Source: Nitrospirota bacterium (lineage in GTDB: Bacteria > Nitrospirota > Thermodesulfovibrionia > UBA6902 > DSMQ01). From it: 64,000 bases of DNA. Below the pieces are notes generated by a model. The model was not told the origin of the DNA, did not search any database, and saw only the letters and a program-made list of their open reading frames with translations. The stretch lies in assembly GCA_016208965.1 (NCBI GenBank), contig JACQXB010000037.1, forward strand, positions 110 to 64,109, written 5' to 3'. Of the stretch, positions 1,734 through 64,000 are shown one piece after another (position 1 is the first letter of the stretch; every line of letters begins with the position of its first letter). A program made the translations under genes and the position numbers.

Positions 1734-2370
1734 GTGACGCGCCACGCCGATTACAGGAAGTGGCTGAGGTATTATCTGGATTTCCGGGGCAAATATTCGC
1801 TTTCTGATTCCAAATCAGAACAGGTGCGTTTGTTTGTCGAAAAATTGAAGAAAAAGAATCAGATGCCCGAACAGCAAAAGCAGGCAGCGCATGCAATCTC
1901 GCTCTTCTTTGAGTCGCAACTGCAAAAAAATTACAATGAAACCCCTCTTGTTAAAATCAATACTGACAAAAAATTAAAAGTAACATCCCCCTCCACCTTC
2001 AGGAATCATAACTCCCCCTATCCCCCTCTTATCTTAAGAGGGGGCGGCGAAGCCGGGGGCGTTACTATCAAGGGGGAATCTTCCAATGGCTTATCAAGGG
2101 CTGAGACAGCATTGCACTCATCATTACGGCCTTCAGTTGCATCTTCACCGAATAAGGCACGATTTAATGAATGGCGTTGTCTGGCTAAATCCGGTTTTTC
2201 GGCATGGGACAAGGTTATTGACACGCTGGCCGCAGAGATCAAGACGCGCCACTATTCCCGAAAAACGCTCAAGACATACGCGGACTGGAGCCGCAAGTTT
2301 CAGGGCTACCCACGCAACAAGCTCGCCTGACTCTGTGAGAGCGAGATCCCTGACATATTTACTGAGTTGA
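1734..2370 (+). pseudogene. Tyrosine recombinase (integron-integrase-like) N-terminal SAM-like domain remnant; catalytic domain absent
   Basis: ADYRKWLRYYLDF...QQKQAAHAISLFF and WDKVIDTLAAEIKTRHYSRKTLKTYADWSRKF resemble the N-terminal core-binding domains of IntI-type recombinases. The frame breaks near 2320-2330 (the LTYL motif continues in another frame). No R..HxxR..Y catalytic region follows. A proline/glycine palindromic element is inserted at 2013-2056. Confidence 0.45.
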
Positions 2371-4038: not shown

Positions 4039-4047
4039 ATTTCAAAA

Positions 4048-4750: not shown

Positions 4751-4785
4751 CTGATAGCTTATAGCTCATAGCTAATATATGATAT

Positions 4786-9625: not shown

Positions 9626-11117
9626 GATGGATATGAAGAACAATAGCCTTAAATGCAGACCCCAAAACGGCATTAAAAGCAAGGATGTAATAAGGTTTTT
9701 ACTGCTTGTTTGTTTTGTAACACTTATTGGTGTCACCATAATTAGCGAATTATCATTAGGGGTAGTTGTAGGGACATTCCTTATTGTTGCCCTCCTTTTG
9801 CTGATTCTTTACAAAGACATAACGAGATATAAGCCTGCAATCTATAAAGACTATAAGATCCTCTCCCTTATCGGGCTACTGCTTTCAGGTAATCTAATAA
9901 TCAGCAGGGGTTTATATTATATCTTGGAAGGATTTTCAAAGTGGCTTGGTAACTTGGACCCACAACTGGTAACGTATGCCTTGCCGCTTGCGGTTGGGCC
10001 AATGCTAACTGTGCTATTGGTAGATATCCATACCGCAATAGTGTTTTCTGTTATAACCAGCCTTCTTGCAGGTGTGTGGCTTGGAGATTCAATCTACTCC
10101 ATCTTTACCTTTGCATCCGGTCTCACGGCAGCCTTTGGAGTAGTAAGGTGCAAAAGGCGATCAGCTATATGGAGGGCAGGGCTATTTGTTGGACTTGTTT
10201 GTGTATTTACTTCTATAACGATAAACATCCTTAGTGGAAGATTGTTAACCATCAATACGCCTATATCCGCTATTTTTGCTTTCTCCAATGGAATTATAGT
10301 TGCGATACTGGTTTCTGCTCTCCTACCGCTTTTTGAATATTTTTTTAAACTTACAACAGATATAAGCCTCTTAGAGCTTCTGGACCTAAATCAACCCCTC
10401 ATGCGAAATCTTTTGGTAGTTGCTCCTGGCACATATCACCATAGTATCGTAGTAGGGAATTTAGTTGAATCATCAGCAGAGGCAGTTGGTGTAAATCCCC
10501 TTTTGGCAAGGGTTGGTGCTTATTATCATGATATTGGGAAGATGAAAATGCCTGAGTATTTTATCGAAAACCAGACAGGGCTTGTAAGTAAGCATGATAA
10601 ACTCGCACCACACATGAGTAGCATAATATTGCTTTCTCATGTAAAAGAGGGGGTTGAACTCGCAAAACAGCATAAGCTCCCTCAATCTATGATAGACATT
10701 ATTCAACAGCACCACGGGACATCACTTATAACCTATTTTTATCAAAAGGCAAAGGAACAACTTGCTGACTCATCAAATGTGGTATCAGAAGATGACTTCA
10801 GATATCCTGGCCCAAAACCTCAAACAAGGGTAGCCGCCATTGTTCTTATGGCAGACGCCACAGAGGCAGCATCAAGGGTTCTAACAGACCCTACCCCTGC
10901 AAGGGTATCGGCCCTTGTTGATAGGGTTATTAATCATTTTTTTATAGATGGACAGTTGAACGACTGCGAGCTAACTCTTCGCGACCTGCAGGAGATAAAG
11001 AAACATTTCGTTTATATTCTTATTAGTATGTTCCACAGGCGCATTACATATCCTGGTTTTGATATAAAAGATGAAGATTCTAATAAAGAACCAACAGAAA
11101 CACAGGCGACTAAATAA
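9612..11117 (+). CDS. 7-TM receptor-type HD/HDIG phosphohydrolase (PgpH/YqfF-like)
   Basis: Multiple TM helices in residues ~30-250, then HHSIVVGNL, YYHDIGKM and QQHHGTS HD-domain motifs. Position between phoH and ybeY matches Firmicute-like operons. Confidence 0.8.
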   Translation: MRGHKMDMKNNSLKCRPQNGIKSKDVIRFLLLVCFVTLIGVTIISELSLGVVVGTFLIVALLLLILYKDITRYKPAIYKDYKILSLIGLLLSGNLIISRGLYYILEGFSKWLGNLDPQLVTYALPLAVGPMLTVLLVDIHTAIVFSVITSLLAGVWLGDSIYSIFTFASGLTAAFGVVRCKRRSAIWRAGLFVGLVCVFTSITINILSGRLLTINTPISAIFAFSNGIIVAILVSALLPLFEYFFKLTTDISLLELLDLNQPLMRNLLVVAPGTYHHSIVVGNLVESSAEAVGVNPLLARVGAYYHDIGKMKMPEYFIENQTGLVSKHDKLAPHMSSIILLSHVKEGVELAKQHKLPQSMIDIIQQHHGTSLITYFYQKAKEQLADSSNVVSEDDFRYPGPKPQTRVAAIVLMADATEAASRVLTDPTPARVSALVDRVINHFFIDGQLNDCELTLRDLQEIKKHFVYILISMFHRRITYPGFDIKDEDSNKEPTETQATK

Positions 11118-11568
11118 GACAAAGATAGAAAAAGTAGCCAATGGGATTCTTTCACTCTTAGGGCAACATACGAGTGAGCTGAGTATCCTGTTTGTAGGTG
11201 ATAAAAAGATGAAAGAGTTGAATACCATCTACAGGGGTGTGCCAAAAACTACAGACGTCCTTTCATTTCCTCAAATAAGTGAGAAGTTAGAAGTGAAAAG
11301 TAACAAGTTAAAAAGAAGTAAAAAAATAGAAATGTCTTACACTTCCCACTTCTTATTTCCTACTTCTTACTTTTTGTTGGGTGATGTAGTTATAAACGTA
11401 TCTAAGGCAGAAACTCAGGCAAGGGATTTGGGCAGGAATTTTTATGATGAAATTTCACGACTTATGATACACGGCATATTACATCTGCTTGGATATGAAC
11501 ATGAAAGGTGTAGCTATAAGGCTAACATAATGAGAAAGAAAGAAGAGGAGATTTCCAAATGCCATTAA
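11071..11568 (+). CDS. ybeY: rRNA maturation RNase YbeY, carrying an in-frame repeat insertion
   Basis: TDVLSFP, LGDVVI and the HGILHLLGYEH zinc motif. About 30 extra residues (EKLEVKSNKLKRSKKIEMSYTSHFLFPTSYFL) are encoded by the AAGT-heptamer hairpin at 11276-11383. Confidence 0.85.
   Translation: MKILIKNQQKHRRLNKTKIEKVANGILSLLGQHTSELSILFVGDKKMKELNTIYRGVPKTTDVLSFPQISEKLEVKSNKLKRSKKIEMSYTSHFLFPTSYFLLGDVVINVSKAETQARDLGRNFYDEISRLMIHGILHLLGYEHERCSYKANIMRKKEEEISKCH
11276..11383. repeat. Imperfect hairpin of AAGTNNN heptamer words inside ybeY
   Basis: Left arm aagtgagaagttagaagtgaaaagtaacaagttaaaaagaagtaaaaa; right arm cacttcccacttcttatttcctacttcttactttttg, the reverse complement of the same word family. 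Confidence 0.75.
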
Positions 11569-17348: not shown

Positions 17349-17415
17349 CAAAGTTCATAAGAGTTTGTGTGAACTTTGCGGGTCAGGAACTTTGTGGGGT
17401 CATCAGGAACTTTGT

Positions 17416-17550
17416 GGGGTCAGACACCAAAATTGACATTTTACAAGATGATAAAACACACCCCTTAATCCCCTCTTGATAAAGGGGAAGTAATAACAAA
17501 GGCAGGTACATTATCCGAAGGGCAGAGGAAATTGAGATTGTGGAGGGAAA
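17416..17550. repeat. Island direct repeat, copy A (preceded by a 2x20-nt tandem ggtcaggaactttgtgg)
   Basis: The ~113-nt core ggggtcagacaccaaaattgacattttacaag...ggcaggtacattatccgaagggcagagg differs from copy C by 4 substitutions and a 1-nt indel (by eye). It ends gagattgagattgtggagggaaa. Confidence 0.85.
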
Positions 17551-25883: not shown

Positions 25884-25950
25884 AGTGTCAAAGTATCAAT
25901 GTATCAAAGTGTCATAGCTTTGACACTCTGACACTCTGAAGCTCTGTCAC
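25884..25950. repeat. Hairpin of GTGTCAA/TGACACT words between xerC and hslV
   Basis: agtgtcaaagtatcaatgtatcaaagtgtcatagctttgacactctgacactctgaagctctgtcac. Confidence 0.6.
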
Positions 25951-26825
25951 TTTTCTTTCGTCGCCATTGGATGCGACTTATCATAAACATCCATCATATG
26001 CGTAATGTCAACATGGGTATATCTCTGTGTTGTTGAAAGAGAAGAGTGCCCTAATAATTCCTGAATTGACCTCAGATCCGCACCCCCGTGAAGCAGATGT
26101 GTTGCAAAGGTATGCCTCAGGACATGTGGACCGACGCGGGTTTTAAGTGCGGTCATCCTGCCATGCTTTATTACTATACGTCTAATACTCCTGTCTGTCA
26201 ACCCCCCTCCTCTTTTATTAAGAAATAGTGCCTGAGATTTTTTCCTAAGCAGGGCCCTTTCAGTGAGGTAATTTTTTAGTGCCTCTACAGCCTTTGTTCC
26301 TACAGGGACAATCCGCTCTTTCTTTCCTTTTCCTTTTACCCGCACAAGTGATTCTTTTATATTAAGGTCATTCATATCGAGTGTAGTTAACTCAGATACT
26401 CTTAATCCTGATGAATAAAGGAGTTCAAGGATAGCCTTGTCTCTTAATGGAATAAAAGTATCTCCCTCTGGCGCCTCCATAAGGGAAAATGTCTCATCAA
26501 CAGTAAGAAACCTCGGGAGATGTTTTTCTAACTTTGGACTTAAGACGAGCTTTGCAGGGTTTTTTTTCATATAGCCTTCTCTGTGGAGATATTTAAATAA
26601 TGACCTGAGAGTAGCGAGCTTTCTTGCTATGGATGATTTCTTGAGTTTCCTGCTGTAAAGTGATGCAAGAAATCCCCTTATATCAAGGTTATCAATGTCT
26701 TTTGGTTTCTTATCTATAAATGAAAAAAATTCAGTCAGATCCTTGATATATGCCCTCAGAGTATGCGGGGATACATCACACTCTGCTTTCAATGAATTAG
26801 TAAACTGTTCAATGTATTTGTTCAA
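25947..26825 (-). CDS. xerC: Tyrosine recombinase XerC/XerD family
   Basis: SGLRVSE, HVLRHTFATHLL, LGHSSLSTTQRYTHV. Located upstream of hslVU, like codV in Bacillus. Confidence 0.85.
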   Translation of the reverse strand: MNKYIEQFTNSLKAECDVSPHTLRAYIKDLTEFFSFIDKKPKDIDNLDIRGFLASLYSRKLKKSSIARKLATLRSLFKYLHREGYMKKNPAKLVLSPKLEKHLPRFLTVDETFSLMEAPEGDTFIPLRDKAILELLYSSGLRVSELTTLDMNDLNIKESLVRVKGKGKKERIVPVGTKAVEALKNYLTERALLRKKSQALFLNKRGGGLTDRSIRRIVIKHGRMTALKTRVGPHVLRHTFATHLLHGGADLRSIQELLGHSSLSTTQRYTHVDITHMMDVYDKSHPMATKEK

Positions 26826-26997: not shown

Positions 26998-28392
26998 TCA
27001 TTCTATTTTTAACCCTGCCCTTTTCTCATTAGCAACAATAACGAGGATGAATTTTTCATTGTTAAGATATTTTTTCGCTACCCTCAGAACATCATCCTTT
27101 GTCACTGCATTGATATAGGCAGGATATTTGTTTATATAATCAAGCCCCAGCTCATAATATTCCATGGCGACAAGAAAGCTTGCTATCTTTTTACCTGCCT
27201 CTATCTTCATAGGAAAACTACCTGTAAGGAACGCCTTTGCATCCTGTAGTTCCGCATCTGAGACCAGCGTCTCCCTTATTCGCTTTATCTCTTTTAATAT
27301 TTCATCTGTTGCCATACTGGCAGACTCATTCTTTGTCTGAATTCCTATTTGAAAGGAACCGTTCTCTTTCTTAGCCTCAAAAAAGCTATGTATATCATAG
27401 GTAAGTCCTTTTTCATCTCTCAGGTTTTGCATAAGCCTTGAGGCAAACCCTCCTCCACCTAAGATATAATTCATTACTGAGAGAGCGTAATAATCAGGGT
27501 TATCCCTGCTTATCCCCATATGTCCAAGTATAATATTTGCCTGAGTAATGTTTTTATCAATGCTTATGGTCTTTTTGTCTTTAAGGGGTTTTGGTTTCTC
27601 AACAGATGGTATTTTAAGTTCTTTTCCCTTCCATTTTGAAAAATATTTTTTAATCAGACTTGTTGCTTCTTCAGGTGTTATGTCGCCAACCACAGACATT
27701 ATTGCATTGTTAGGCACATAATAGGCTGAATGAAAATCCTTAAGGTATCTCTGGTTTATATGGTCTAATGTCCCGGACGTGCCCTCAATTAGTCTCCCAT
27801 ATGGGTGTAAGCCAAAGAGGGCTTCTTTAAATGCCTTTTGGGCGACAAAATCAGGGTTTTCCTCGTATGACCTAAGACTGCCTTTGATGCGCTCCCTTTT
27901 CTTATCAAGTTCTTCCTGAGGGAAAGATGGACTTATAATTATGTCTGAGAGGATATCAAATCCTAAGTCCAAATCCTTTTTTAGGATAGAAAGGCTAACA
28001 GTAATATAGTCATCCCCACCTGATGTATGAAGAGATGCCCCTACAAATTCTATCTCCTCGCTTATCTCAGTGGATGTTCTTTTTTTTGTGCCCTCAGGGA
28101 GGAGTTCTGCAGTTAGATTTGCAAGCCCTGCCTTTTCTGCCGGCTCAATCAAACTGCCTCCTTTAATCCCTACTGTAACCATGACAATGGGGAGATTATG
28201 CCTTTCTACCACCATAAGGGTAAGACCATTTTCAAGGACATCTCTTTTGATTTCAATGCCCGCATAGGCAGGACTGAAATTTAAAATTAAAAATGTAAAA
28301 TGTAAAATTAGGGTAAATAAAATTATTCTCCAAGATTTTGAATAACCACAGAGGCACTGAGACACAGAGTTTTTAATAAAATTAATATTCAT
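26998..28392 (-). CDS. M16 (pitrilysin) family peptidase, non-catalytic-type subunit
   Basis: M16 fold motifs but no HxxEH (GLANLTAELLPEGT in its place). The first ~45 residues are encoded by repeat DNA (28275-28369). Confidence 0.8.
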   Translation of the reverse strand: MNINFIKNSVSQCLCGYSKSWRIILFTLILHFTFLILNFSPAYAGIEIKRDVLENGLTLMVVERHNLPIVMVTVGIKGGSLIEPAEKAGLANLTAELLPEGTKKRTSTEISEEIEFVGASLHTSGGDDYITVSLSILKKDLDLGFDILSDIIISPSFPQEELDKKRERIKGSLRSYEENPDFVAQKAFKEALFGLHPYGRLIEGTSGTLDHINQRYLKDFHSAYYVPNNAIMSVVGDITPEEATSLIKKYFSKWKGKELKIPSVEKPKPLKDKKTISIDKNITQANIILGHMGISRDNPDYYALSVMNYILGGGGFASRLMQNLRDEKGLTYDIHSFFEAKKENGSFQIGIQTKNESASMATDEILKEIKRIRETLVSDAELQDAKAFLTGSFPMKIEAGKKIASFLVAMEYYELGLDYINKYPAYINAVTKDDVLRVAKKYLNNEKFILVIVANEKRAGLKIE

Positions 28393-29863
28393 TTCCCCCT
28401 CGGTGCCTCTGTGTCTCTGTGGTTTTATCTTGATTCTTTATCGGTATTAAAATCCCCACAGTCCTTTTATCCTCTATCAGATATTTTTTGGCTATCCTCT
28501 GGACATCATCAGACGTAACCTTCCTTATTTCCTCAAGATATTTATCCTTAAGCCGCCAGCCGCCAATTGCCTCAAACATCCCAAGCATCTGTGCCTGAAG
28601 GTAAATAGAATCCTGCCCCATAATAAACTCTGCCTCAATCTGATTCTTTGCCTTCTGGACCTCTCTTTCAGAGGGTGGTTCATTTTTTATCTTTTCAATC
28701 TCCTCGTAAAGTGCCTTTTCTACTTCATCTATTGTTTTTCCGGGCAATGCCTGGGCGTATAAGTAAAACAAAAAAGGGTACTTATAAAGACTGTCATATT
28801 CAGCACCTGCTGAAAGGGCGAGTTGTTTTTCATCAATGAGGTTTTTATAAATCCTTGCGCTCTTACCTCCGGAGAGGATTTCTGCAAGGACCTCAAGTGA
28901 GGCATTATCATCACTAAGGACATTGGGCGCCTTGTATGCGATAAGAATGTAAGGCAACTCAGCCTCTTTTTTTACAATCACCCTTTTTTCTCCGTTCTGC
29001 TCGGGCTCATCTAAATTAATCTTTTTAATCTCTGGCCCTTTGGGGATATCGTTGAACTCTTTTTTTATCTTGGTTATTAGAGAGTCTTTGTCTATATTGC
29101 CCACAGCTATTATGAATGCATTGTTTGGCACATAATATTTTTTGTAATAATTATAGAGGTCATCCCTTGTAATATTCTTAATGTCTGACATCCAGCCTAT
29201 AACAGGCCTCCTGTAAGGGTGATTTTTAAATGCAGTTGCCACAACCTCTTCATAGACAAGGTTTTGAGGGTCATCTTCGTATCTAAGTCTCCTTTCTTCC
29301 ATTATTACATCCCTTTCGGAAAGGGTCTCTTTTGGGTCTAAAATCAAATTTTGCATCCTGTCTGCCTCAAGCTCTATTGAAAGATGAAGATGCTCAGGGG
29401 CAAGTTTTTGATAATAAAACACATAGTCCTTGTTTGTGCCTGCATTATCAATGCCGCCTACTCTCTGAATAATCCTTGAAAAGGTCTTTGCACCATATTT
29501 AGGTGTCCCTTTAAACATCATGTGTTCAAGCAGATGGCTTAGTCCTGTCTTTCCTACTTCTTCATTAACTGAGCCTGCATGATACCATATCTGAAACATG
29601 GAAAGAGGGGCAAAAGGGTCTTGCTGAATTATAATCTTAAGCCCGTTTGCAAGGACATCTTCTTTTACCCCGTTAGAAATAATGCCCCGTTGCTCTGCAG
29701 CGGGGTTTGTCCCGCTTAGAGATAAATCTCTAACGGGATTTAATGCCCCGCTGGAATTTCTAACGGGGTTTACAGTCTGTGCACGAAGCTGAAAGGGAAC
29801 AAGGTATGAACCGTTCTGGTTCATACCAAGGAGCAGTAATAACAGTACAATTATTTTTTTCAT
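28382..29863 (-). CDS. M16 (pitrilysin) family zinc peptidase, catalytic-type subunit
   Basis: HLLEHMMFKGT (HxxEH), signal peptide MKKIIVLLLLLLG. The residue ~14-65 linker is encoded by two palindromic element families (29666-29827). Confidence 0.85.
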   Translation of the reverse strand: MKKIIVLLLLLLGMNQNGSYLVPFQLRAQTVNPVRNSSGALNPVRDLSLSGTNPAAEQRGIISNGVKEDVLANGLKIIIQQDPFAPLSMFQIWYHAGSVNEEVGKTGLSHLLEHMMFKGTPKYGAKTFSRIIQRVGGIDNAGTNKDYVFYYQKLAPEHLHLSIELEADRMQNLILDPKETLSERDVIMEERRLRYEDDPQNLVYEEVVATAFKNHPYRRPVIGWMSDIKNITRDDLYNYYKKYYVPNNAFIIAVGNIDKDSLITKIKKEFNDIPKGPEIKKINLDEPEQNGEKRVIVKKEAELPYILIAYKAPNVLSDDNASLEVLAEILSGGKSARIYKNLIDEKQLALSAGAEYDSLYKYPFLFYLYAQALPGKTIDEVEKALYEEIEKIKNEPPSEREVQKAKNQIEAEFIMGQDSIYLQAQMLGMFEAIGGWRLKDKYLEEIRKVTSDDVQRIAKKYLIEDKRTVGILIPIKNQDKTTETQRHRGGNEY

Positions 29864-33927: not shown

Positions 33928-34809
33928 ATGAGAACCCTTATTGAAAAGGCAAATATACTGGTTGAGGCACTGCCATACATAAGAAATTTTTATGGAAAAA
34001 CCTTTGTAATAAAATATGGCGGCGCAGCAATGGTAGACGAGAAGCTTAAATGTGCATTTGCGCAGGATGTGGTATTGCTAAATTTCATAGGGATAAAGTG
34101 CGTAATAGTGCATGGTGGCGGTCCAAAGATAAACAAGATTATGACAAAGATGGGGAAAAAACCTACATTTATTCAGGGGCAAAGATTTACTGATAAAGAA
34201 ACTGTAGATATTGTTGAGATGGTGCTTGGTGGGCTTATTAATAAAGAGATAGTCTCTTTATTAAATAGCCACGGGGGCAAAGCGATTGGATTAACTGGAA
34301 AAGATGGAGGCATTATAAAGGCCAAAAAGAAGGCGGTAAAGAGAATCTCTCCTGAAACTGGAACGGCTGAGCTCATAGACTTAGGTCTTGTTGGAGTGGT
34401 TAAGCAGGTCAACCCTGAGGTGTTGCTTTCTATTGAAAAAGATGGTTTTATCCCTGTGATTGCGCCTATAGGGAGTGGTGATAAGAATACCACCCTTAAT
34501 ATAAATGCTGACTCTGTAGCAGGTGCGGTTGCCTCTGCCCTGAAGGCAGAGAAACTAATACTCCTTACAGATGTAGAAGGCATAAGAGATGAAAATGGCA
34601 ACCTAATACAAACGTTAAATAAGAAAAAGATAAACTCCCTTATTTCCAGAGAGATAATCACAGGCGGAATGCTTCCAAAGGTTGCGGCATGCCTTAATGC
34701 AATTAGATGCGGGGTCAAGAAGACACATATAATAGATGGTCGCATTCCCCATGCCATTTTGCTTGAGATATTTACCAAGAAAGGTATAGGAACAGAGATA
34801 ACAAAGTGA
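33928..34809 (+). CDS. argB: Acetylglutamate kinase
   Basis: FVIKYGGAAM, VHGGGPKI, NINADSVAGAVA, LTDVEGI. Confidence 0.93.
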   Translation: MRTLIEKANILVEALPYIRNFYGKTFVIKYGGAAMVDEKLKCAFAQDVVLLNFIGIKCVIVHGGGPKINKIMTKMGKKPTFIQGQRFTDKETVDIVEMVLGGLINKEIVSLLNSHGGKAIGLTGKDGGIIKAKKKAVKRISPETGTAELIDLGLVGVVKQVNPEVLLSIEKDGFIPVIAPIGSGDKNTTLNINADSVAGAVASALKAEKLILLTDVEGIRDENGNLIQTLNKKKINSLISREIITGGMLPKVAACLNAIRCGVKKTHIIDGRIPHAILLEIFTKKGIGTEITK

Positions 34810-36647
34810 TGCAGCTTACAGAGAATGCAATTAGAGTTTTAAAGACCCGTTATCTCCTTAAAGATGAACAGGGCAACATCATAGAGACTCCGGAGGAGCT
34901 TTTCAGAAGGGTTGCAAGAACTGCTTCAGAGCCCGAAGTGCTTTATGGCGGAAACCCTCGTGAATGGGAGGAGAGATTCTATGAGCTCATGAACAATCTC
35001 CTTTTCCTTCCGAACACTCCTATGCTGATAAATGCTGGCAAGGAAATCGGACAGCTTGCTGCATGCTTTGTCCTTCCTGTGGATGATTCAATGAAAAGTA
35101 TTTTTGATTCACTGAAAAATGCCGCATTGATTCTCCAGAGCGGGGGAGGCACAGGCTTTTCCTTTTCAAGGTTAAGACCAAGGGCCGACCTTGTAAAATC
35201 AACAGGGGGGATAGCAAGTGGGCCTGTATCATTCATGAGGATATATAACACTGCAACAGAGGTCATTAAACAGGGAGGGGCAAGAAGGGGTGCAAATATG
35301 GGCATCCTGAGGATTGACCATCCTGACATAATTGAATTCATAAAGATCAAGAGAGATGAGAAGGAATTGACAAATTTCAATATCTCTGTTGCAGTAACAG
35401 ATGCCTTTATGGAGGCACTGAAGAAGAACACTGAGTATGACCTGATAAATCCCAGAAACAACCGTGTAACAGGACAACTCAATGCCCGTGATGTATTTAA
35501 AGAAATAGTTGAAAGCGCATGGGAAACAGGCGATCCAGGGCTTATATTCATTGACAGGATTAACAGAGACAACCCAACGCCCCATATCGGAGAGATAGAA
35601 AGCACAAACCCCTGCGGAGAACAACCACTTCTTTCTTTTGAGGCATGTGTTCTTGGGTCAATTAATTTATCGAGGATGGTGAAGCCTGATACAAGATTCA
35701 AGATTCAAGATTCAAGTAAAAAAAACGAACCCTCACTCAGTGCACAGAACACAGAGCACAGAACACAGATTAATCCCCCCTCACCCCCCTTTGCTAAAGG
35801 GGGGATGGGGGGATTTTCATACGAGATTGATTGGGAGCTTTTAGCTTCTGTTGTAAAGATTTCCGTTCGGTTTCTTGATAATGTCATAGATGCAAATAAC
35901 TACCCTGTGCCTGAGATAGAGAAGATGCATAAAGGGAATAGAAAAATCGGGCTTGGTGTTATGGGATGGGCTGATATACTTATAAAATTGGGCATCAGGT
36001 ATAACTCAAAAAAGGCATTTAACCTTGCCCGTCAGGCAATGAAATTCATAAGGGATAACGCAAGAGAAGCTTCCTTAGGGCTTGCGAGGGAACGTGGAAC
36101 ATTCCCGAATTTCAAGGGTTCTATTTATGACACACCTGAGTTTAATGCAAAAGGCGGACTACGGAATGCAACCACAACAACCATTGCACCAACAGGAACA
36201 CTCTCCATAATCGCAGGCTGTTCAAGTGGCATAGAGCCAATTTTTGCAATAGCTTACAAGAGACGTGTAATTGATACAACGCTTTATGAGATACATCCTT
36301 ATTTCTTAGAGGTTGCAAAAAACATGGGATTCTATAGTGCTGAACTTATTGAAAAAGTCTCTAAAAAAGGCTCATTAATAGGATTCAAAGAAGTCCCTTT
36401 AGACGTAAGAAGGCTATTTATAACTGCCCATGGGGTACCATTTAAAGACCACATAGAGGTTCAGTCAGCATTTCAGGAATTTACAGATAACGCAGTCTCA
36501 AAGACTATAAACCTAAAGCAGAGGACTACGAGAGATGATGTTGCAAAGGCATTCGTACTTGCCTATGAAAAAGGATGTAAGGGGATTACTGTTTTTAGAT
36601 ATGGCTCCAAGAGGGGTCCGTTGATAAAGTTTGAAGAAGGAGACTAA
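34806..36647 (+). CDS. nrdJ: Adenosylcobalamin-dependent (class II) ribonucleotide reductase, with a ~43-aa in-frame repeat-derived insertion
   Basis: VLKTRYL, LPNTPMLINAG, ACFVLPV, GGGTGFSFSRLRP, STNPCGEQPL, TIAPTGTLS, KTINL. Insertion at 35688-35818. Confidence 0.9.
   Translation: MMQLTENAIRVLKTRYLLKDEQGNIIETPEELFRRVARTASEPEVLYGGNPREWEERFYELMNNLLFLPNTPMLINAGKEIGQLAACFVLPVDDSMKSIFDSLKNAALILQSGGGTGFSFSRLRPRADLVKSTGGIASGPVSFMRIYNTATEVIKQGGARRGANMGILRIDHPDIIEFIKIKRDEKELTNFNISVAVTDAFMEALKKNTEYDLINPRNNRVTGQLNARDVFKEIVESAWETGDPGLIFIDRINRDNPTPHIGEIESTNPCGEQPLLSFEACVLGSINLSRMVKPDTRFKIQDSSKKNEPSLSAQNTEHRTQINPPSPPFAKGGMGGFSYEIDWELLASVVKISVRFLDNVIDANNYPVPEIEKMHKGNRKIGLGVMGWADILIKLGIRYNSKKAFNLARQAMKFIRDNAREASLGLARERGTFPNFKGSIYDTPEFNAKGGLRNATTTTIAPTGTLSIIAGCSSGIEPIFAIAYKRRVIDTTLYEIHPYFLEVAKNMGFYSAELIEKVSKKGSLIGFKEVPLDVRRLFITAHGVPFKDHIEVQSAFQEFTDNAVSKTINLKQRTTRDDVAKAFVLAYEKGCKGITVFRYGSKRGPLIKFEEGD
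35692..35815. repeat. Composite repeat inside nrdJ: (ATTCAAG)x3, (CACAGAR)x4, PPFxKGG palindrome
   Basis: caagattcaagattcaagattcaag (35692-35716); cacagaacacagagcacagaacacag (35743-35768); aatcccccctcacccccctttgctaaaggggggatggggggatt (35772-35815). Confidence 0.85.
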
Positions 36648-38061: not shown

Positions 38062-38134
38062 CCAGTTAAAAGACAGTGAAGAGTGAAGAGTTAAAAGTTT
38101 TTATTCCTTAACTCTTAACTCATAACTTATAATT
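38062..38134. terminator. Hairpin of AGTTAAA/GAAGAGT words downstream of tRNA-Ser(GCU)
   Basis: cagttaaaagacagtgaagagtgaagagttaaaag ttttta ttccttaactcttaactcataactt. Confidence 0.5.
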
Positions 38135-39539: not shown

Positions 39540-39637
39540 CAGTTAAAAGTTGAAAGTTATAAGTTTAAAGTTGTAAGGTAAGAAGTGTCGTAAATGTTTT
39601 TCATTTTTCCCTTTTCACTTTTAACTTTAAACTTTTG
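39540..39637. repeat. Long imperfect hairpin of AAGTNNN words between tRNA-Ser(GGA) and ffs
   Basis: agttaaaagttgaaagttataagtttaaagttgtaagg ... cccttttcacttttaactttaaactttt. Confidence 0.7.
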
Positions 39638-39756: not shown

Positions 39757-39859
39757 AAAAAAATGTAAAATGCAAAAATCAAAATGCAAAATTATGGAAG
39801 AAAAAATTTTAAAAAATAAACTCATTAATTTTTCATTTTTCATTTTTCATTTTGAATTT
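39757..39859. repeat. Imperfect hairpin of AAAATGC/AAAATGA words upstream of dnaX
   Basis: aaatgtaaaatgcaaaaatcaaaatgcaaaatt ... aatttttcatttttcatttttcattttgaattt. Confidence 0.7.
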
Positions 39860-39864
39860 ATCAT

Positions 39865-41499
39865 ATGAGTTACCTTGTTCTTGCAAGAAAGTGGAGACCT
39901 CAATTTTTTGACGAGTTGATCGGACAGGAGGCTGTTGTTCGCATCCTCAGAAATGCCATCATAAGCGAAAAGGTTGTGCATGCATATCTGTTCTCGGGTC
40001 CAAAGGGTGTAGGGAAAACATCGGCTGCAAGGATTCTGGCAAAGGCGCTTAATTGTTCTAAGGGACCTACTTACGAGCCCTGTGGTGAGTGCCCAAATTG
40101 CAGGTCAATAACCGATGGCTCCTCAATAGATGTCCTTGAGATTGATGGTGCATCTAATAATAAAGTTGAGGATATAAGAGACCTGATAGAGGTTGTAAAA
40201 TATGCACCCTCAACATGCAAATATAAGATATACATTATTGATGAAGTCCATATGTTAACTAAAGAGGCATTTAATGCACTGTTAAAAACCCTGGAGGAGC
40301 CCCCTTCGCATGTCATATTTGTCTTTGCTACAACCGAACCCAAAAAATTACCTGCTACAATCCTATCGCGCTGTCAGCATCATGCCTTCCGAAAGATTCC
40401 AAAAATCAGGTTAAAAGAGCGCCTTCTAAAGATCTCACGGACTGAAAATATAAATATAAAAGACACCGCTTTAGAGATGATAGCAAGGTCTGCTGATGGA
40501 AGCATGAGGGATGCACTAACCATACTTGATCAGGCATCTTCCTTTAGTGATAATATCAGTGAAAGTGACCTGCAGACACTTCTCGGCTTACCCGAGGCAG
40601 ACATAATATTAAACTTATCAGAGGCAATCTTAGAGGGGGATATATCTAAAGACCTTTTCATAATAAAAGACATTGTTGAGAGAGGTTATGATCTTAGGCC
40701 AATGGTTAAGGAACTTGTAGAGCATTTTAGAAATCTGGCTGTTGTAAAAATTGCCAATGACCCTAAAGAGCTTCTTGAATTCACAGAATCTGAGATAAAG
40801 AATCTCCGTCAGCAGGCATCAAAGGTAAGTATAGAAGAGCTCTCTGTTCTTATAACCCAACTCCTTAAGCTTGAGACTGAAGTAAGGACAGCCTCAAATC
40901 CAAGATATGCTTTTGAACTTGGTCTTTTACGCACATCCTTTGTTAAGGGAATGACCTCTATTAGCAGCATTTTAGAGAGAATAGGAAATCTTGAGCATGG
41001 GAATTCTCCTCGGGATACCAAAAGCCCACAACCACCAGCTCAACCGACAATCAAACAATCTGAACCTCTCATGACAGAGAGCATCAAATCTCTCCCTGAT
41101 GTAACGGACAAATTCCAAGTAGATGCTGCACAGGAATTATGGCAGAAGGTCATTGAAAAACTTAAACCCGAACACAATCTTCTAACATGCAAACTTGGAG
41201 AGGCACATATAGAAGGCTTTACAAAAACAGACCTTACAATAGGTTTTAACGGGGGTATGTCTGTACTTGCAGATTCTGTCAAAAAAAATTCACATGTAAT
41301 TGAAGACACACTGAAAGAAATCATAGGACAGAAGATAAAACTAAAAGTTGTAACATTACCAAATAAAAATGCAGGGAAAGGACTCAATGAAGTAAAAGAG
41401 TCTATCCTTTCTGACCCTACTGTTAAAAGCGCCCTTGAACTCTTTAATGGTAAGATATTAGAAATTAAACCACTTAAAAGCACAAATGAACACGGTTAA
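39865..41499 (+). CDS. dnaX: DNA polymerase III subunit gamma/tau
   Basis: LARKWRPQFFDELIGQ, GPKGVGKTS, zinc module CGECPNC, IIDEVHML, SRCQ. Confidence 0.95.
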   Translation: MSYLVLARKWRPQFFDELIGQEAVVRILRNAIISEKVVHAYLFSGPKGVGKTSAARILAKALNCSKGPTYEPCGECPNCRSITDGSSIDVLEIDGASNNKVEDIRDLIEVVKYAPSTCKYKIYIIDEVHMLTKEAFNALLKTLEEPPSHVIFVFATTEPKKLPATILSRCQHHAFRKIPKIRLKERLLKISRTENINIKDTALEMIARSADGSMRDALTILDQASSFSDNISESDLQTLLGLPEADIILNLSEAILEGDISKDLFIIKDIVERGYDLRPMVKELVEHFRNLAVVKIANDPKELLEFTESEIKNLRQQASKVSIEELSVLITQLLKLETEVRTASNPRYAFELGLLRTSFVKGMTSISSILERIGNLEHGNSPRDTKSPQPPAQPTIKQSEPLMTESIKSLPDVTDKFQVDAAQELWQKVIEKLKPEHNLLTCKLGEAHIEGFTKTDLTIGFNGGMSVLADSVKKNSHVIEDTLKEIIGQKIKLKVVTLPNKNAGKGLNEVKESILSDPTVKSALELFNGKILEIKPLKSTNEHG

Positions 41500-41636
41500 A
41501 TTCGAAATGCGAAGCACGAAATACGAAACAATTTTAAAATTCTAAATTCAAATTCTTAAAACTTGTTTATTGTTTTGAATTTTGAGTTTTGGTTATTAGG
41601 ATTTGTTTAGAATTTCGAATTTCGATATTCGTATTT
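41499..41636. repeat. ~140-nt imperfect hairpin of TTCGAAAT and TTCAAAT words between dnaX and ybaB
   Basis: attcgaaatgcgaagcacgaaatacgaaac..ttctaaattcaaattcttaaaac ... gttttgaattttgagttttgg..tagaatttcgaatttcgatattcgtattt. Confidence 0.75.
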
Positions 41637-41653
41637 ATTGAAGAGGAGGATAT

Positions 41654-44531: not shown

Positions 44532-45683
44532 TTGAATACGCATGAATTTAAAAACATAAAAAAAATCCTTGTCATAAAACTCCGCCATATCGGGGATGTG
44601 CTTCTTAGTGTCCCTGTATTCAGGGCATTAAGGAAAAACTTCCCTGCCGCCCATATCTCTGCACTTGTAAATTCAGGAACAGAAGAGGTATTAACAGGCA
44701 ATCCACTCATTAATGAAATAATAGTCTTTGACAGAGGTATCAAAAAACTAAACTCCTTACAGAGATATTTAAAGGAGCTATCCTTCTTGAAAGTGATAAG
44801 AAAGGAAGGTTTTGATATGGCTGTTGATCTTACAAGTGGAGACAGGGCAGCAATCATATCTTTTATATCAGGGGCGAGATACAGGCTTGCATATGACCCA
44901 TGTGGGGCTGGTTTTTTAGGGAAAAGATTTTTATATACACACCTTGCTCAAAAAAACGAAAGCCAGCATATGGTATTGCAAAATCTTGATGTTGTTAGAC
45001 AGTTTGGTATTAGCACAGAAAATCTTATGGTGGATTTTTTTATTCCTGATGAAGCAAAGATGTTTGTAAAAAGAATTTTTGAGGAAAATAATATAAATCC
45101 CCCCTCACCCCCCTTTGACAAAGGGGGGCTGGGGGGATTTAGCGACAAAGTCGTCCATGTGCATCCAACATCACGATGGCTTTTTAAATGCTGGAAAGAT
45201 GAGCATATGGCAGAGGTGATAAGTTGGCTTATTGAGCAGGGAATAAAAGTCATAGTAACCTCAGCACCTAATAAAAGAGAGGTAGAAAAAGCAAAAAAGA
45301 TTTTATCTTTGGTCAGCTATCAGCTATCAGCTATCAGCTATCAGCTATCAGCTATCAGCTATCAGCTTATTGACCTGTGCGGTAAAACCACAATTAAACA
45401 GCTTGCTGCAATCTCAGAGGCATCTGACTTGTTTTTGGGGGTTGATTCAGCACCTATGCATATAGCCGCTGCAGTGGGAACTCCTGTCATTGCCCTTTTT
45501 GGCATGACAGATGAAAAGCTGTGGGGACCGTGGGGTGATAAACACCTTGTGATTAAGGAAAGGTTAAAGTGCATGCCCTGCCAGAAGGGTAATTGTGAAG
45601 GTCTCTCTCTGCGCGAATGCATGGAGGCTATAAAACCTGATACTGTTAAAAATATAATTAAAGAGAAAATAAGCAATGCATAG
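44532..45683 (+). CDS. Glycosyltransferase family 9 (LPS heptosyltransferase-like) with two in-frame repeat insertions
   Basis: ILVIKLRHIGDVLLSVPVFRALRKNFP, GVDSAPMHIAAAVGTPVIALFG. Insertions INPPSPPFDKGGLGGFS (45096-45140) and SYQLSAISYQLSAISYQL (45314-45369). Confidence 0.85.
   Translation: MNTHEFKNIKKILVIKLRHIGDVLLSVPVFRALRKNFPAAHISALVNSGTEEVLTGNPLINEIIVFDRGIKKLNSLQRYLKELSFLKVIRKEGFDMAVDLTSGDRAAIISFISGARYRLAYDPCGAGFLGKRFLYTHLAQKNESQHMVLQNLDVVRQFGISTENLMVDFFIPDEAKMFVKRIFEENNINPPSPPFDKGGLGGFSDKVVHVHPTSRWLFKCWKDEHMAEVISWLIEQGIKVIVTSAPNKREVEKAKKILSLVSYQLSAISYQLSAISYQLIDLCGKTTIKQLAAISEASDLFLGVDSAPMHIAAAVGTPVIALFGMTDEKLWGPWGDKHLVIKERLKCMPCQKGNCEGLSLRECMEAIKPDTVKNIIKEKISNA
45314..45369. repeat. 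Perfect heptamer tandem repeat (CAGCTAT)x7 plus a partial unit, in frame within the GT9 gene
   Basis: cagctatcagctatcagctatcagctatcagctatcagctatcagctatcagctta. The 7-nt DNA period gives a 7-aa peptide period (SYQLSAI). Confidence 0.95.
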
Positions 45684-54560: not shown

Positions 54561-54612
54561 ATCTGTCCAAAATAAATTTTCAAAAAATAAAAAAATGATA
54601 CTGTTACTAATA

Positions 54613-54725
54613 CTTCCCCCCTTTGTAAAAGGGGGGCGAGGGGGGATTTTATGGATAAATGCTTCTGCTTAGAGTTTTTTTATTTATAAAAATCTCCCCT
54701 CGCCCTCTTTGCTAAAGAGGGGAAC
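54613..54725. repeat. Two partial PPFxKGG-type palindromic elements
   Basis: cttcccccctttgtaaaaggggggcgaggggggatttt (54613-50) and aaaatctcccctcgccctctttgctaaagaggggaac (54688-725). Confidence 0.75.
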
Positions 54726-62124: not shown

Positions 62125-64000
62125 TTACTTTAAATCCCTTCTTTTGAGCTGCCTTCTTTTCCTGAAATCGTATCCAATGTATCCAACACACCCAAGCAGG
62201 GTAATACCAGAAACAAGCAAACCTATTTCAAACAACCTCTGCGGCTTAAACTCAAGCACAATCTGAAAATCCTCTCCCATTTCTGACTTCTGACTTCTGA
62301 CTTCTGACTTTATCTCAACCATGTCGACCTTGAATCTATCATCCTCAAAAACATTCAAAGCATGTTTACCTTCTTTTAAATAGATATTATTGAATTCTAT
62401 CCAATTGTCTTCTTGGTCTTTTACCTTCGGTAATTTATATATTTCCCCATCTATTTCTAATAAATTATCGCCAACCATGAAATCAGATGGTTTATATATA
62501 TACTCTCTATATCTAATAAGTTTCTTGCTCATAACTGTTTGATATACTATTTCCTTATCATCAGGATGACTCACCCCTATGGACAGGAGATTATAATTCT
62601 GCTTATCAGGAAATTTCTTTTTAACCTCCTCATATGCCCGAACAGTGAGCAGTAAATCGCCGCCGCTCATGCCAGCGGCAGGCACAAACATCTCAACCCT
62701 TTCATCCTCCTTTTCATCCCCGTCAAAATCAAAACCTAACATTACCTTCCATTCCTGTGGAAATTCTGTCCTCCATTTTCCATCCTCAAACATCCATGCT
62801 TCCCTCCTGTCTTCCATTGACGGTTTAGAAAAGTTTAATGACAATACCGGGGTCTCCTTTAAGTCAATAAATCTATTCAGGTGTAATCTGTAAACATCCT
62901 TTATATCCCACGGAATCTGCTCCGGGAAATCCACGCTTCTTAAATCACCATTTGCATCAAAGTAATAGTAGTTATCAGGCAAATAAGCAAACAATCTGTC
63001 TTTAAAATCAGCCAGTATTGGCGGTGTCTTCAAAAAAGCGATGTTTTTAAATTTAAACGGGTAAACATGTCTATCCCCTTCCCATGAGAGGTCAACTCCA
63101 TCTTTCTTTTTAAATTTAAGGCTAATTTCACTAATAGATAGCTTAGGGGCAGTCTCTTTGCCAAATATATCATTAGCCTTTTGATACAGGTTAATAACAT
63201 ATTGTTTATTATCTGCCTTCAGTCTTATCTTTTTTGTCCAGAATAATGAAAACCACTCACTTTCATTAACTAATTCAACATCTATCTCTACCTCCTGAAC
63301 CCCTAAGTCCTCCATCTCACAGGAAAATACCAGATATGGCCTTTCCTTGACGCGTATATCAGGGAATTTTTTAGTTAAAACAACACCTTCTTTCACATCT
63401 CCCTTGTTTTGAAAATATGCATTAATGTGCATACCATCTTCCGAGATATTCTGTTTGTAAGTAGTATTTAATGCCTTAACATCCCAGCCGGAAAAGGCAT
63501 CTAATAAGGCTTCTATACTACTACTACTACTACTAATAAAACCCTTTTCTATAAAATCCCTCTTCGGTTTTACCAGAGCCTTGAGAGAATAATTCCCATC
63601 TTTAGGGATATAGAATCCCTGCTCACCTATCCTGAATGGATTGTCTTTCTTAAATTTAATTTCCTTCAATTTTTCATCATTTTTAAGCATCGCTTCAACT
63701 TTTTCTTTATCTATGTAAAAGAGATAGCCAATATCCTTTGATTTAAGCATGTTCTCATATTCTTTATGCCTTTCTTTTGATACAATCACAAACTCCATTT
63801 CCTGAAATAATTCTTTAAATTTTTCCCTGTTAAAACTTTTAACTTTTAACTTTTCACTTTTAACTTCTATCTTGTGCTGCCCTTGCAACCAATCAAATTC
63901 ACCCACCTTTATCCATTTATCATCTTCCCTTCCTGCCCAACCTTTCAATTCCTCTCCATCAATACTTACCTCTAACCCCAAATCCTTAAACAACCTTGCA
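62125..64000 (-). CDS. Large secreted/membrane-anchored protein, unknown function (partial; frame open to right edge)
   Basis: More than 625 aa, with a single C-terminal TM (FEIGLLVSGITLLGCVGYIGY) followed by a basic tail. It contains two in-frame heptamer arrays (62282-62310, 63829-63866). The reading frame has no stop up to 64000. Confidence 0.6.
   Translation of the reverse strand, partial: ARLFKDLGLEVSIDGEELKGWAGREDDKWIKVGEFDWLQGQHKIEVKSEKLKVKSFNREKFKELFQEMEFVIVSKERHKEYENMLKSKDIGYLFYIDKEKVEAMLKNDEKLKEIKFKKDNPFRIGEQGFYIPKDGNYSLKALVKPKRDFIEKGFISSSSSSIEALLDAFSGWDVKALNTTYKQNISEDGMHINAYFQNKGDVKEGVVLTKKFPDIRVKERPYLVFSCEMEDLGVQEVEIDVELVNESEWFSLFWTKKIRLKADNKQYVINLYQKANDIFGKETAPKLSISEISLKFKKKDGVDLSWEGDRHVYPFKFKNIAFLKTPPILADFKDRLFAYLPDNYYYFDANGDLRSVDFPEQIPWDIKDVYRLHLNRFIDLKETPVLSLNFSKPSMEDRREAWMFEDGKWRTEFPQEWKVMLGFDFDGDEKEDERVEMFVPAAGMSGGDLLLTVRAYEEVKKKFPDKQNYNLLSIGVSHPDDKEIVYQTVMSKKLIRYREYIYKPSDFMVGDNLLEIDGEIYKLPKVKDQEDNWIEFNNIYLKEGKHALNVFEDDRFKVDMVEIKSEVRSQKSEMGEDFQIVLEFKPQRLFEIGLLVSGITLLGCVGYIGYDFRKRRQLKRRDLK

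Follow-up and report, generated by a model that had tools for sequence, protein, structure and literature searches.

The sequence examined in this study is a 64-kb stretch (the window) of a groundwater Nitrospirota genome, part of contig JACQXB010000037.1 of a metagenome-assembled genome (MAG; GCA_016208965.1), and our analysis centres on an in-frame insert of repeat DNA within its nrdJ gene, which encodes an adenosylcobalamin-dependent (class II) ribonucleotide reductase (RNR). The open reading frame (ORF) of nrdJ reads ...GSINLSRMVKPD-TRFKIQDSSKKNEPSLSAQNTEHRTQINPPSPPFAKGGMGGFS-YEIDWELL..., with the upstream flank ending in SINLSRMVKPD, and it is free of stop codons through the insert (Table 1). 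Both the all-alpha N-domain and the ten-stranded barrel domain of RNR are present according to Pfam (Ribonuc_red_lgN, PF00317, 1.5e-24; Ribonuc_red_lgC, PF02867, 1.4e-135) and Foldseek, and the best solved relative retrieved by phmmer is the NrdJ of Thermotoga maritima (1xje, E=2.5e-115). Chains of class II (1xje/1xjk) are matched at E ~1e-115, compared to 9e-62 for the best class I chain; the closest solved relative is a B12-dependent enzyme and not one of class I or III, and the window enzyme itself is presumed to be cobalamin-dependent. Catalysis by class II RNR involves a thiyl-radical cysteine in the NPCGE motif, a redox-active cysteine pair and an asparagine and glutamate of the finger loop; the corresponding residues of the window protein (C87, N268, C270, E272, C281) are invariant in 54 orthologues and align with the T. 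maritima motifs. An NCBI entry identical to the window protein, likewise from a MAG contig, is named 'adenosylcobalamin-dependent ribonucleoside-diphosphate reductase [Nitrospirae bacterium]'. The gene order trpC-argB-nrdJ is retained at orthologous loci, indicating that the nrdJ genes compared here are orthologues and not paralogues. Outside the loop that holds the insert, the window protein shares 77–81% of its amino acids with eight orthologues at only 37–48% identity of fourfold sites, which is to be understood as synonymous saturation under strong purifying selection. The claim of the first-pass annotation, that a real and intact class II NrdJ with whole flanking blocks carries an in-frame insert of repeat DNA, is therefore borne out by the Pfam and Foldseek matches, the relationship to 1xje and the open frame.

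Table 1. Coordinates in the window of nrdJ, the components of its insert and other repeat-bearing features
Feature	Position	Strand	Details
nrdJ, adenosylcobalamin-dependent (class II) ribonucleotide reductase	34806..36647	+	613 aa, intact ORF
Variable loop of NrdJ, residues 292-340	35679..35825	+	49 aa vs 5 in T. maritima NrdJ (344-348)
Heptamer array (GATTCAA)x4.1	35688..35716	+	Tandem Repeats Finder (TRF), 95% matches; translated (T)RFKIQDS(S)
Non-repeat spacer, 26 nt	35717..35742	+	gtaaaaaaaacgaaccctcactcagt(g); read from sequence
Heptamer array (CACAGAR)x3.9	35743..35769	+	TRF (CACAGAA), 90% matches; translated (Q)NTEHRTQ
Double-stem palindrome, 44 nt	35772..35815	+	AATCCCCCCTCACCCCCCTTTGCTAAAGGGGGGATGGGGGGATT; frame +1 peptide NPPSPPFAKGGMGGF
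GT9 heptosyltransferase III	44532..45683	+	Second in-window host gene
Palindrome copy in GT9	45096-45139		Frame +1, as in nrdJ; NPPSPPFDKGGLGGF
Perfect (TCAGCTA)x7.9 array in GT9	45313-45367		SYQLSAISYQLSAISYQL
ybeY insert, inverted heptamer pair (AAGTGAG-type, ACTTCTT-type)	11277..11372	+	ORF 11071..11568, residues 70-98
ORF without Pfam match, with in-frame arrays	62125..63993	minus	622 aa; arrays at 62279-62310 and 63830-63866
Split inverted structure with palindrome copy at 54605-54652	54605..54724		Intergenic, between two minus-strand genes
Diverged palindrome copy	2006..2067		In ORF 1734..2330; R1 24.5 bits, E=7e-6; translation NSPYPPLILRGGGEAGG
Inverted array pairs (heptamer, some octamer), long imperfect hairpins	25884-25951, 28345-28421, 38075-38132, 39541-39636, 39760-39864, 41498-41640		Intergenic
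AGCT-containing arrays AGCTTAT, TTAGCTT, ATAGCT	3445-3503, 4048-4127, 4746-4777		

The insert is composed of two heptamer arrays, a spacer and a palindrome. The palindrome forms an 18-bp double stem, with outer arms AATCCCCCC/GGGGGGATT and inner arms CCCCCCTTT/AAAGGGGGG, asymmetric bulges (TCA and AT) and a 3-nt loop; its fold energy is ~-35 to -42 kcal/mol, with ~-35 kcal/mol for the equivalent copy, and it scores 76.5 bits (E=7e-25) against the covariance model R1 of the element. None of the three patterns is due to chance, given that dinucleotide-preserving shuffles lead one to expect 0.07 matches for the palindrome, 0.01 for the GATTCAA array and 0.00 for the CACAGAR array. The two array units are each confined to the nrdJ insert within the window, and in 1.07 Mb of element-bearing DNA arrays of (AAGATTC)n and (AACACAG)n occur only at nrdJ loci; an inverted pair of a CACAGAG-type unit is found in addition at 28345-28421. 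The GATTCAA array occupies the same site in the orthologues P0002, P0012 and L124 (orthologous proteins are given as P and loci as L numbers), and peptides of HRTQNTE type recur in the loop of many others. The tryptic peptides expected from the insert would include NEPSLSAQNTEHR, TQINPPSPPFAK and GGMGGFSYEIDWELLASVVK. The first-pass annotation had the insert built entirely from three repeat families. Its repeat nature stands, 'entirely' does not, the 26-nt spacer being non-repetitive; and while the palindrome does represent a dispersed family, the two heptamer arrays are not dispersed in the window. We prefer to replace the three families by one class, namely short-unit tandem arrays prone to hairpins, because the G-arm of the palindrome equals (GGGGGGAT)x2 and the element can thus be viewed as the inverted pair of a two-unit G-rich array.

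Alignment to 1xje by phmmer places window residue 291 at T. maritima residue 343 and residue 341 at 349, so that relative to the solved structure the segment is an insertion. The same is concluded from distant NrdJ homologues (50–60% identity), in which the equivalent segment measures 8–16 residues in 29 of 31 cases and has no obvious repeats. The strand downstream of the NPCGE finger loop bears C281, the second active-site cysteine; the insert comes directly after this strand and before the next helix. In an AlphaFold2 model built on the alignment with the 54 orthologues (predicted template-modelling score 0.81; Foldseek TM-score 0.77–0.79 to T. maritima NrdJ 1xje/1xjn), residues 300-336 have no secondary structure and a predicted local distance difference test score (pLDDT) of 30–41, and they are flanked by a strand (280-287) and a helix (343-363), with pLDDT of 95–97 over residues 341-360. 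According to the model, the insert would thus leave the barrel intact and extend from it in disordered form; surface exposure would be expected from the modelled disorder together with the general RNR fold. As a separate observation, NrdJ representatives at 50% identity (P0241-P0390) are mostly 700–1950 aa long, many of them two to three times the usual length, and match in 3–5 stretches that are interrupted near query residues 271 and 294/340, consistent with multiple inteins.

The orthologue alignment that the first-pass annotation had suggested was run on the best 120 sequences (71–79% identical, 568–618 aa, full-length called proteins only; the named ones are all Nitrospirae, Nitrospirota or Thermodesulfovibrionales), and nearly all length variation among them falls in this one loop. 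Loop length ranges from 4 to 48 aa (median 18), about one-tenth of the orthologues having an almost bare loop, and the loops are full of translated heptamers and palindromes. A 7-residue periodicity is present in 43 of the 120 loops (e.g., HRTQNTEHRTQ, KLKTQNSKLKTE, EVRSQKSEVRS and TRDKGQG...SSLVTRHSSL), and palindrome-type peptides (NPPSPPFxKGGxGGF, PPHPPLxKGGxxGG or TPPFNSPLSKGGHRGV) are present in 16. Lengths peak at 8, 15, 22 and 29 aa, with 50 of the 120 equal to 1 mod 7, an excess of chi-square p ~1e-14 when kinship is ignored. Steps of 7 aa would be explained by heptamer slippage in which only multiples of three units (21 nt) keep the frame open; all 120 listed orthologues, very different as their inserts are, read through this segment in an open frame. 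Instead of the single insertion event that had been assumed initially, the loop is to be regarded as a long-lived hot spot across the Nitrospirota NrdJ clade.

How the cassette changes over time was read from orthologue DNA at eight loci (L116-L123) and from that of P0019 and P0100 (L140, L141). The nrdJ palindrome is 93–98% identical in the five orthologues that have an uninterrupted copy of the same length (P0002, P0003, P0004, P0010, P0014), with changes clustered in the 3-nt loop of the hairpin, which reads gct, gtc, agt, att or gta. The entire 134-nt cassette, spacer included, is 93% identical between the window and P0002, at 78% amino acid identity of the host proteins, and the spacer has just 2 differences between host genes that are synonymously saturated. 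The cassette must consequently be far younger than the split of the host genes, or else it has been homogenised. Codon differences between the two cassettes comprise 6 nonsynonymous and 1 synonymous, which gives no sign of protein-level constraint. The pair of P0004 and P0012 presents the opposite situation, in that the proteins are 97% identical (fourfold sites 93%), with zero mismatches in three 60-nt bins upstream of the loop, and the cassettes are different: (CACAGAA)n plus palindrome in P0004, as against (GATTCAA)n plus (CATCACG/CATTACG)n and no palindrome in P0012. A short recombination patch is possible for this pair. P0002, which is 93% identical to P0010, has the window-type cassette, and the cassette of P0010 is common to the more distant P0003; P0002 and P0003 derive from the same sample. 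Judged by sequence, the window cassette looks chimeric, its left half being of the P0012 type and its right half of the P0004 type. A single ancestral insertion followed by neutral drift in place was also considered and is ruled out by the cassette identity of 93% at saturation, together with unrelated cassettes in near-identical genes.

Insertions are themselves nested. A mini-hairpin, cctgcctaccggacaggcagg, lies within the (CACAGAA) array of P0003 (L117) and P0010 (L119) and, by its peptide, of P0096 too, and a 35-nt hairpin lies in the left arm of the P0006 (L122) palindrome, where the frame remains open. Taken together, the mini-hairpins in the nrdJ loops of L117, L119 and L122 are 21–35 nt long and all in frame. 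These sequences suggest a hierarchy in which hairpin or repeat DNA becomes the target of ever smaller insertions. The insertion unit of the palindrome can be approached from the empty site of P0019 (cacaga/ca tatgaa) and the filled site of P0004 (cacaga/TT-(44 nt)-TT/ca tatgag), which show a clean difference of 48 nt, or 16 codons, within a codon. This one empty/filled comparison, made between diverged lineages, is suggestive of a unit of 48 nt, corresponding to 35770-35817 in the window.

Beyond nrdJ, the palindrome proved to be a widely dispersed element. Genomes were scanned for exact matches to the left arm at its 20 specified bases (one genome per species, 596 Gb; a procedure biased to the exact left arm), and more than 115 loci among the matches listed compare with ~1 expected by chance. 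Carriers include at least six phylum-level groups, Nitrospirota being the commonest among the matches listed; by record, they comprise Nitrospinota, Methylomirabilota, Syntrophaceae, Desulfarculaceae, other Deltaproteobacteria, Poribacteria, Aminicenantes and Desantisbacteria, as well as Gallionella, Rhodocyclaceae, Hydrogenophilales, Gammaproteobacteria and the isolate Nitrosomonas supralitoralis. The exact left arm is also present in 15 viral contigs (L125-L139, IMG/VR), several of which share flanks; these contigs are possible vehicles of spread across phyla, or else misclassified cellular fragments. The element exists in a full form with both stems and in a short form; the latter has no outer right arm and is often split or inverted. 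In the alignment of 23 full copies, AATCCCCCC is invariant and is preceded by A or T, and the right arm, absent from the search pattern, almost always complements the left. Covariation was assessed with 228 copies having up to 3 left-arm mismatches (each right arm being aligned to the consensus instead of to its own left arm). Of 23 double-sided changes in the inner stem, 22 are still Watson-Crick, and 22 further C-to-T changes there leave a G-T pair, the compensatory changes marking the hairpin as a maintained feature.

In the direction of the genome-wide survey of frames that had been proposed along with the initial observation, 120 sampled copies were examined, a copy being counted as in a gene when it lay in an open frame 150 or more codons long and was flanked there by 25 or more codons on either side. 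By this measure 58 copies (48%) are inside long ORFs, the full form contributing 24 of 42. Ten of the 58 host ORFs were tested by Pfam, and all ten are genuine enzymes with the element inside the domain envelope: the LeuRS (leucyl-tRNA synthetase) editing domain, RecJ, NadE (NAD synthase), AroA (EPSP synthase), two P-type ATPases, TopA (topoisomerase I), CobT, KdsB (with two inserts) and WaaA. All stop-free frames are used, in both orientations. The 58 copies are distributed over frame +1 (NPPSPPFxKGG, 16 copies), frame +2 (IPPH/RPPLxKGG, 9) and frame +3 (1), and over the reverse frames c (..PPLxKGGEGGF/L, 20), a (..KGGRGGI, 10) and b (..RGVRGD, 2). The C6/G6 runs encode Pro-Pro/Gly-Gly in any frame, and stops are possible only in the loop or the bulges.

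Searches for a known identity of the palindrome were negative within their scope. Rfam at permissive thresholds returned only sub-threshold noise and no family for 35600-35900, and the palindrome was not called as an intrinsic terminator in the scan of nrdJ, its tail having too few T. A metagenome scan with the array/palindrome junction, aimed at composite cassettes outside nrdJ, retrieved one locus, which is another nrdJ; this result is weak, since the scanned collection misses several known junction contigs. In L120 (3560-4500), nrdJ is followed, two genes downstream, by a Y1_Tnp-like gene (IS200/RAYT-type) that lies between inverted copies of GGGGTCAGGTCTTG and not of the palindrome. One of the GGGGTCAGGTCTTG flanks continues as CAAGATTCAAGA, which equals two GATTCAA units of nrdJ; this may be a coincidence, and within the window the flank motif is at chance level.

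Repeats of the same type are a general property of the window. TRF gave 60 rows, more than half with a period of 7 or 14, and a uniform detector applied to the 1.07 Mb of element-bearing loci found 75 period-7 arrays with 59 distinct units, compared to 0, 2, 19, 9 and 3 arrays of period 5, 6, 8, 9 and 10, respectively. Intergenic arrays typically consist of array, spacer and reverse-complement array, and seven inverted pairs fold at -14 to -39 kcal/mol. The GT9 gene has two sites of in-frame insertion, both of which in the orthologues are hot-spot loops with short baselines or with other heptamers. At the first site, orthologues differ in carrying the palindrome in frame +1, frame +2 or reversed; at the second, the window exceeds P0122 and P0123 by exactly three units (7 aa). 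The GT9 array, in which gain or loss of a single unit would frameshift the enzyme, is a candidate for a slippage-driven on/off switch of a lipopolysaccharide (LPS) gene. In ybeY, the inverted pair folds at -24.6 kcal/mol and Pfam YbeY spans the insert; by comparison with the YbeY endoribonuclease of Aquifex aeolicus (1oz9), residue 69 corresponds to 75 and residue 99 to 80, the insert replacing 4 residues.

The array peptides of ORF 62125..63993 are KSEVRSQKSE and IEVKSEKLKVKS; the unit of one array, GAAGTCA, recurs in RecJ of L007, and matching EVRSQKS-type peptides are present in several NrdJ loops of other genomes. The intergenic palindrome copy at 54600-54730 is laid out as inner hairpin plus G-arm, an A/T-rich spacer of ~40 nt, and C-arm plus a variant inner hairpin, whose stem CCCTCTTT/AAAGAGGG represents a compensated change, and the whole folds at -60.9 kcal/mol. 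ORF 1734..2330, host of the diverged palindrome copy, matches Pfam Phage_int_SAM_4 (phage-integrase SAM-like) at its N-terminus and may, by this match, be a fragment of a tyrosine recombinase gene. In the co-directional gene run 2712-5802, every intergenic spacer has an AGCT-containing array that is self-complementary and self-folding. A 20-nt tandem repeat, TCAGGAACTTTGTGGGGTCA, present in 2–3 copies at 17371-17423 in an apparent intergenic gap, is unrelated to the heptamers.

Based on these findings, we consider it probable that the nrdJ insert consists of tolerated, fast-turning-over DNA, selfish or slippage-prone in nature, that resides in a permissive loop with no sign of use. Where the first-pass annotation left it open that the enzyme tolerates, or has exapted, the selfish DNA, tolerance in frame is upheld; exaptation is left unsupported by the disordered model, the 6:1 ratio and the use of five to six frames and orientations. 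In the process envisaged, arrays would lengthen and shorten through replication slippage, and the palindrome and mini-hairpins would insert and excise in a hairpin-dependent manner, perhaps with a Y1/HUH enzyme supplied in trans, as for repetitive extragenic palindromes (REPs), or by template switching. The palindrome would apparently insert as a 48-nt, 16-codon unit, and cassettes would probably be exchanged or homogenised between co-occurring strains. Selection would do little more than keep the frame open and remove peptides that disturb folding; loop lengths would then differ by multiples of 7 aa (21 nt), and the palindrome would be seen only in stop-free frames. The resulting peptide would be hydrophilic, rich in proline and glycine, disordered and attached to the unchanged ten-stranded barrel. 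Slippage, hairpin-mediated mobility and exchange between strains are the mechanisms we infer from these patterns.

A bolder extension, which we regard as possible but rather doubtful, sees in the hairpin elements a cross-phylum family of very small mobile elements, harmless in coding sequence, with the nrdJ loop as a recurrent landing or exchange site. If true, a mostly stop-free unit of 16 codons could settle in coding sequence, which is the largest part of a compact genome, and spread between phyla, possibly on phages; entire cassettes would be swapped between strains independently of the flanking gene, as a small, non-splicing analogue of intein or intron homing in RNR.

Several points weigh against the reading of the insert as tolerated, rapidly exchanged repeat DNA. 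Slippage by itself fails to explain why the cassette, spacer included, is so similar between saturated lineages; this similarity needs recent exchange, homogenisation or selection at the nucleotide level. Long-tract homologous recombination between window and P0002 receives no support, flank identity falling to background at the cassette borders, and the persistence of an entire cassette at 93% identity in two diverged hosts without an extended recombination tract is the least secure part of the reading. Mobility of the palindrome is deduced from its distribution; the P0019/P0004 pair, as the single informative empty/filled comparison, has no target-site duplication, and a phmmer search with the Y1_Tnp-like protein of L120 matched only itself in the 1.07 Mb around the copies, so that no mobilising enzyme was found. 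Translation of the insert and its retention in the mature enzyme are taken from the open frame. In an orthologue set of full-length called proteins, frameshifted alleles would escape notice, the length statistics are without phylogenetic correction, and the comparative sequences come mostly from MAG and metagenome contigs, with taxon labels as given in the records.

A rival explanation is a function at the nucleotide level, whereby the hairpin or cassette acts as DNA or RNA in nrdJ (as a translational or transcriptional pause site between the barrel halves, an mRNA-stability or processing element, or a protein-binding site) and the peptide is a by-product. The near constancy of the palindrome among orthologues whose fourfold sites share only 37–50% identity, its changes falling mostly in the 3-nt loop, is in line with this, as is the preservation of hairpin complementarity by compensatory changes in diverged copies; and the mostly nonsynonymous differences between the 93% identical cassettes of window and P0002 fit nucleic-acid better than protein constraint. 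Nevertheless, nrdJ does not require the element, as is evident from close relatives without the palindrome (P0012 vs P0004) and from the almost bare loops, and elsewhere the element is indifferent to place, strand and frame, being found in unrelated genes as well as in intergenic DNA. It has neither an Rfam match nor a terminator-like tail, and conservation of the stem is equally expected of an enzyme-mobilised multi-copy element or of gene conversion. A nucleotide-level function is therefore considered unlikely. An exapted or adaptive loop, serving for example in oligomerisation or partner interaction, or diversifying to escape a phage RNR inhibitor, is in our judgement improbable. Expansion of the loop in ~90% of the 120 orthologues, its turnover at a pace much faster than the rest of the gene, and the excess of nonsynonymous over synonymous differences in the shared cassette, as diversifying selection would yield, might be quoted in its support. 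The peptide, however, is modelled as disordered, and translation of the repeats accounts for its composition; similar peptides exist in GT9, YbeY, LeuRS, RecJ, AroA and other enzymes, at loops with a short baseline; all stop-free frames and both orientations are used; and a 6:1 ratio from 7 codons fits neutrality equally well.

Removal of the insert, in the manner of an intron, an intein or by translational bypass, comes to mind because RNR genes are classic intein and intron hosts and the distant NrdJ representatives are long and interrupted. Yet neither the open frame in all 120 listed orthologues nor the 21-nt quantisation would be needed if the insert were removed before translation, and at 129 nt (43 aa) it is far below the size of group I/II introns or inteins, with no Cys/Ser...His-Asn junction residues and no Rfam intron match. 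Intein, intron and translational bypass are rejected on these grounds. That the nrdJ copy is a decaying duplicate could be argued from the fact that only 64 kb of the genome are in view and another RNR may be encoded elsewhere; against this stand catalytic residues invariant in 54 orthologues, conserved synteny and strong purifying selection. Removal and duplicate decay, taken as one, are highly improbable. We give hardly any credence to an artefact of assembly or binning, that is, a chimeric join or mis-assembly at the repeats. The sequence is indeed of MAG origin and repeats are typical places of mis-joining, but other samples, assembled independently, contain near-identical cassettes (L116, L124), six further assemblies contain related ones, NCBI has an entry for the identical protein, the reading frame is kept, and both flanks belong to the same gene.

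If tolerance of repeat DNA in permissive loops is the correct reading, hairpin repeats and 7-nt microsatellites constitute a regular source of loop insertions in RNR, LeuRS, RecJ, AroA, TopA, YbeY and LPS transferases. They would provide a datable system for studying how proteins gain new disordered loops, how selfish DNA survives in coding sequence and how one 44-nt element came to be present across phyla. In practical terms, such inserts make metagenomes look richer in proteins than they are, disrupt alignments as well as domain calls, and point to permissive sites where loops could be engineered; further cases could be found by their 7-aa quantisation, a simple signature. The habit of small repeats to reside in frame in housekeeping genes is widespread and apparently undescribed. 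The first-pass annotation knew of no description of such in-frame insertion for this element family, and in agreement with this, our literature search, itself incomplete, found no paper on the palindrome element or on repeats read in frame in Nitrospirota.

Inteins and self-splicing introns in RNR genes remove themselves and are inserted at highly conserved catalytic motifs. The nrdJ insert is similar to them in presumably leaving the enzyme functional; unlike them, it has no splicing features, is short, is located in a variable loop and must stay in frame. [quoted passage not shown] The palindrome, by comparison, is an inverted repeat over the whole element of 44–48 nt, and its one empty/filled pair shows no duplication. 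REPs are 20–40 bp G+C-rich imperfect, bulged palindromes, often arranged as inverted doublets, whose hairpins are thought to be mobilised by Y1 transposases (REP-associated tyrosine transposases, RAYTs; PMC3733652; PMC3116915), and some GTAG/CGTC-tagged REPs are intragenic and encode 20–82 aa (Di Nocera et al., PMC3733652). Asymmetric bulges, a maintained hairpin and split or inverted arrangements are common to REPs and the palindrome. The differences are that the palindrome lacks the GTAG/CGTC tag (it starts with A/T followed by AATCCCCCC), that 48% of sampled copies reside in long ORFs, as opposed to the mostly intergenic REPs, and that it crosses phyla, where REP families are mostly specific to a species or genus. 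In the 1.07 Mb around the copies, no RAYT-like gene was found beside the palindrome, the Y1_Tnp-like gene near nrdJ in L120 having a different repeat at its flanks.

The arrays have their nearest counterparts in the short tandemly repeated repetitive (STRR) heptamers of cyanobacteria, which form hairpins (PMC2670836), and in the G-rich heptamer arrays (GGGAATC)n of Xanthomonas and (GGGGATT)n of Nostoc, both kinds being reported as mainly intergenic and under-represented in coding regions (PMC2670836; PMC4692102). Heptamers are over-represented among bacterial simple sequence repeats in general, for which a polymerase-footprint rationale has been quoted (PMC4692102). Clear analogies exist in the over-representation of 7-nt arrays, in their mostly intergenic location, in the inverted hairpin pairs, those of the intergenic window arrays resembling STRR hairpins, and in a length that varies among relatives; the G-arm of the palindrome, as a double unit, resembles the Nostoc unit GGGGATT. 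The window arrays are distinct in being in frame in NrdJ, GT9 and YbeY, in their occurrence in Nitrospirota and other groundwater and sediment phyla, and in producing 7-aa quantised loops. Elhai et al. in 2008 are said to have described very small hairpin elements ('small dispersed repeats') nested in Nostoc heptamer arrays, and the nested hairpins of P0003, P0010 and P0006 recall these. A heptanucleotide array in coding sequence is known from NeuO of E. coli K1, where 3–53 perfect N-terminal units function as a phase-variation switch and only copy numbers that are multiples of 3 yield the full-length protein (PMC13001214). Heptamers obey this in-frame rule in both cases, each three units adding 7 residues; unlike in NeuO, the nrdJ arrays have ~4 imperfect units, and as they are short and imperfect, a phase-variation switch in nrdJ is unlikely. 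The perfect 7.9-unit array of GT9 is the closer analogue.

The Rickettsia palindromic elements (RPEs), invoked as precedent by the first-pass annotation, are an apt comparison, in view of the 58 of 120 palindrome copies in frame in genes and the ten out of ten tested hosts that are housekeeping enzymes. According to published accounts, close to half of the RPE copies are in frame in unrelated housekeeping genes (Ogata et al. 2000), at positions thought to be surface-compatible so that function is not lost, and RPEs are ~100–150 bp long, restricted to Rickettsia and characterised by one conserved peptide per family (PMC10969869, PMC3733652). The palindrome is like them in being in frame in many unrelated protein genes. 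Relative to RPE-1 to RPE-10 as described there, it is set apart by its length of 44–48 nt, its G6/C6 arms, its use of five to six frames or orientations, its association with heptamer arrays and its presence in free-living phyla and in viral contigs. If our interpretation is correct, the RPE phenomenon is not confined to a reduced intracellular genus and also covers free-living bacteria, namely Nitrospirota, Nitrospinota, Methylomirabilota, Desulfobacterota and others.

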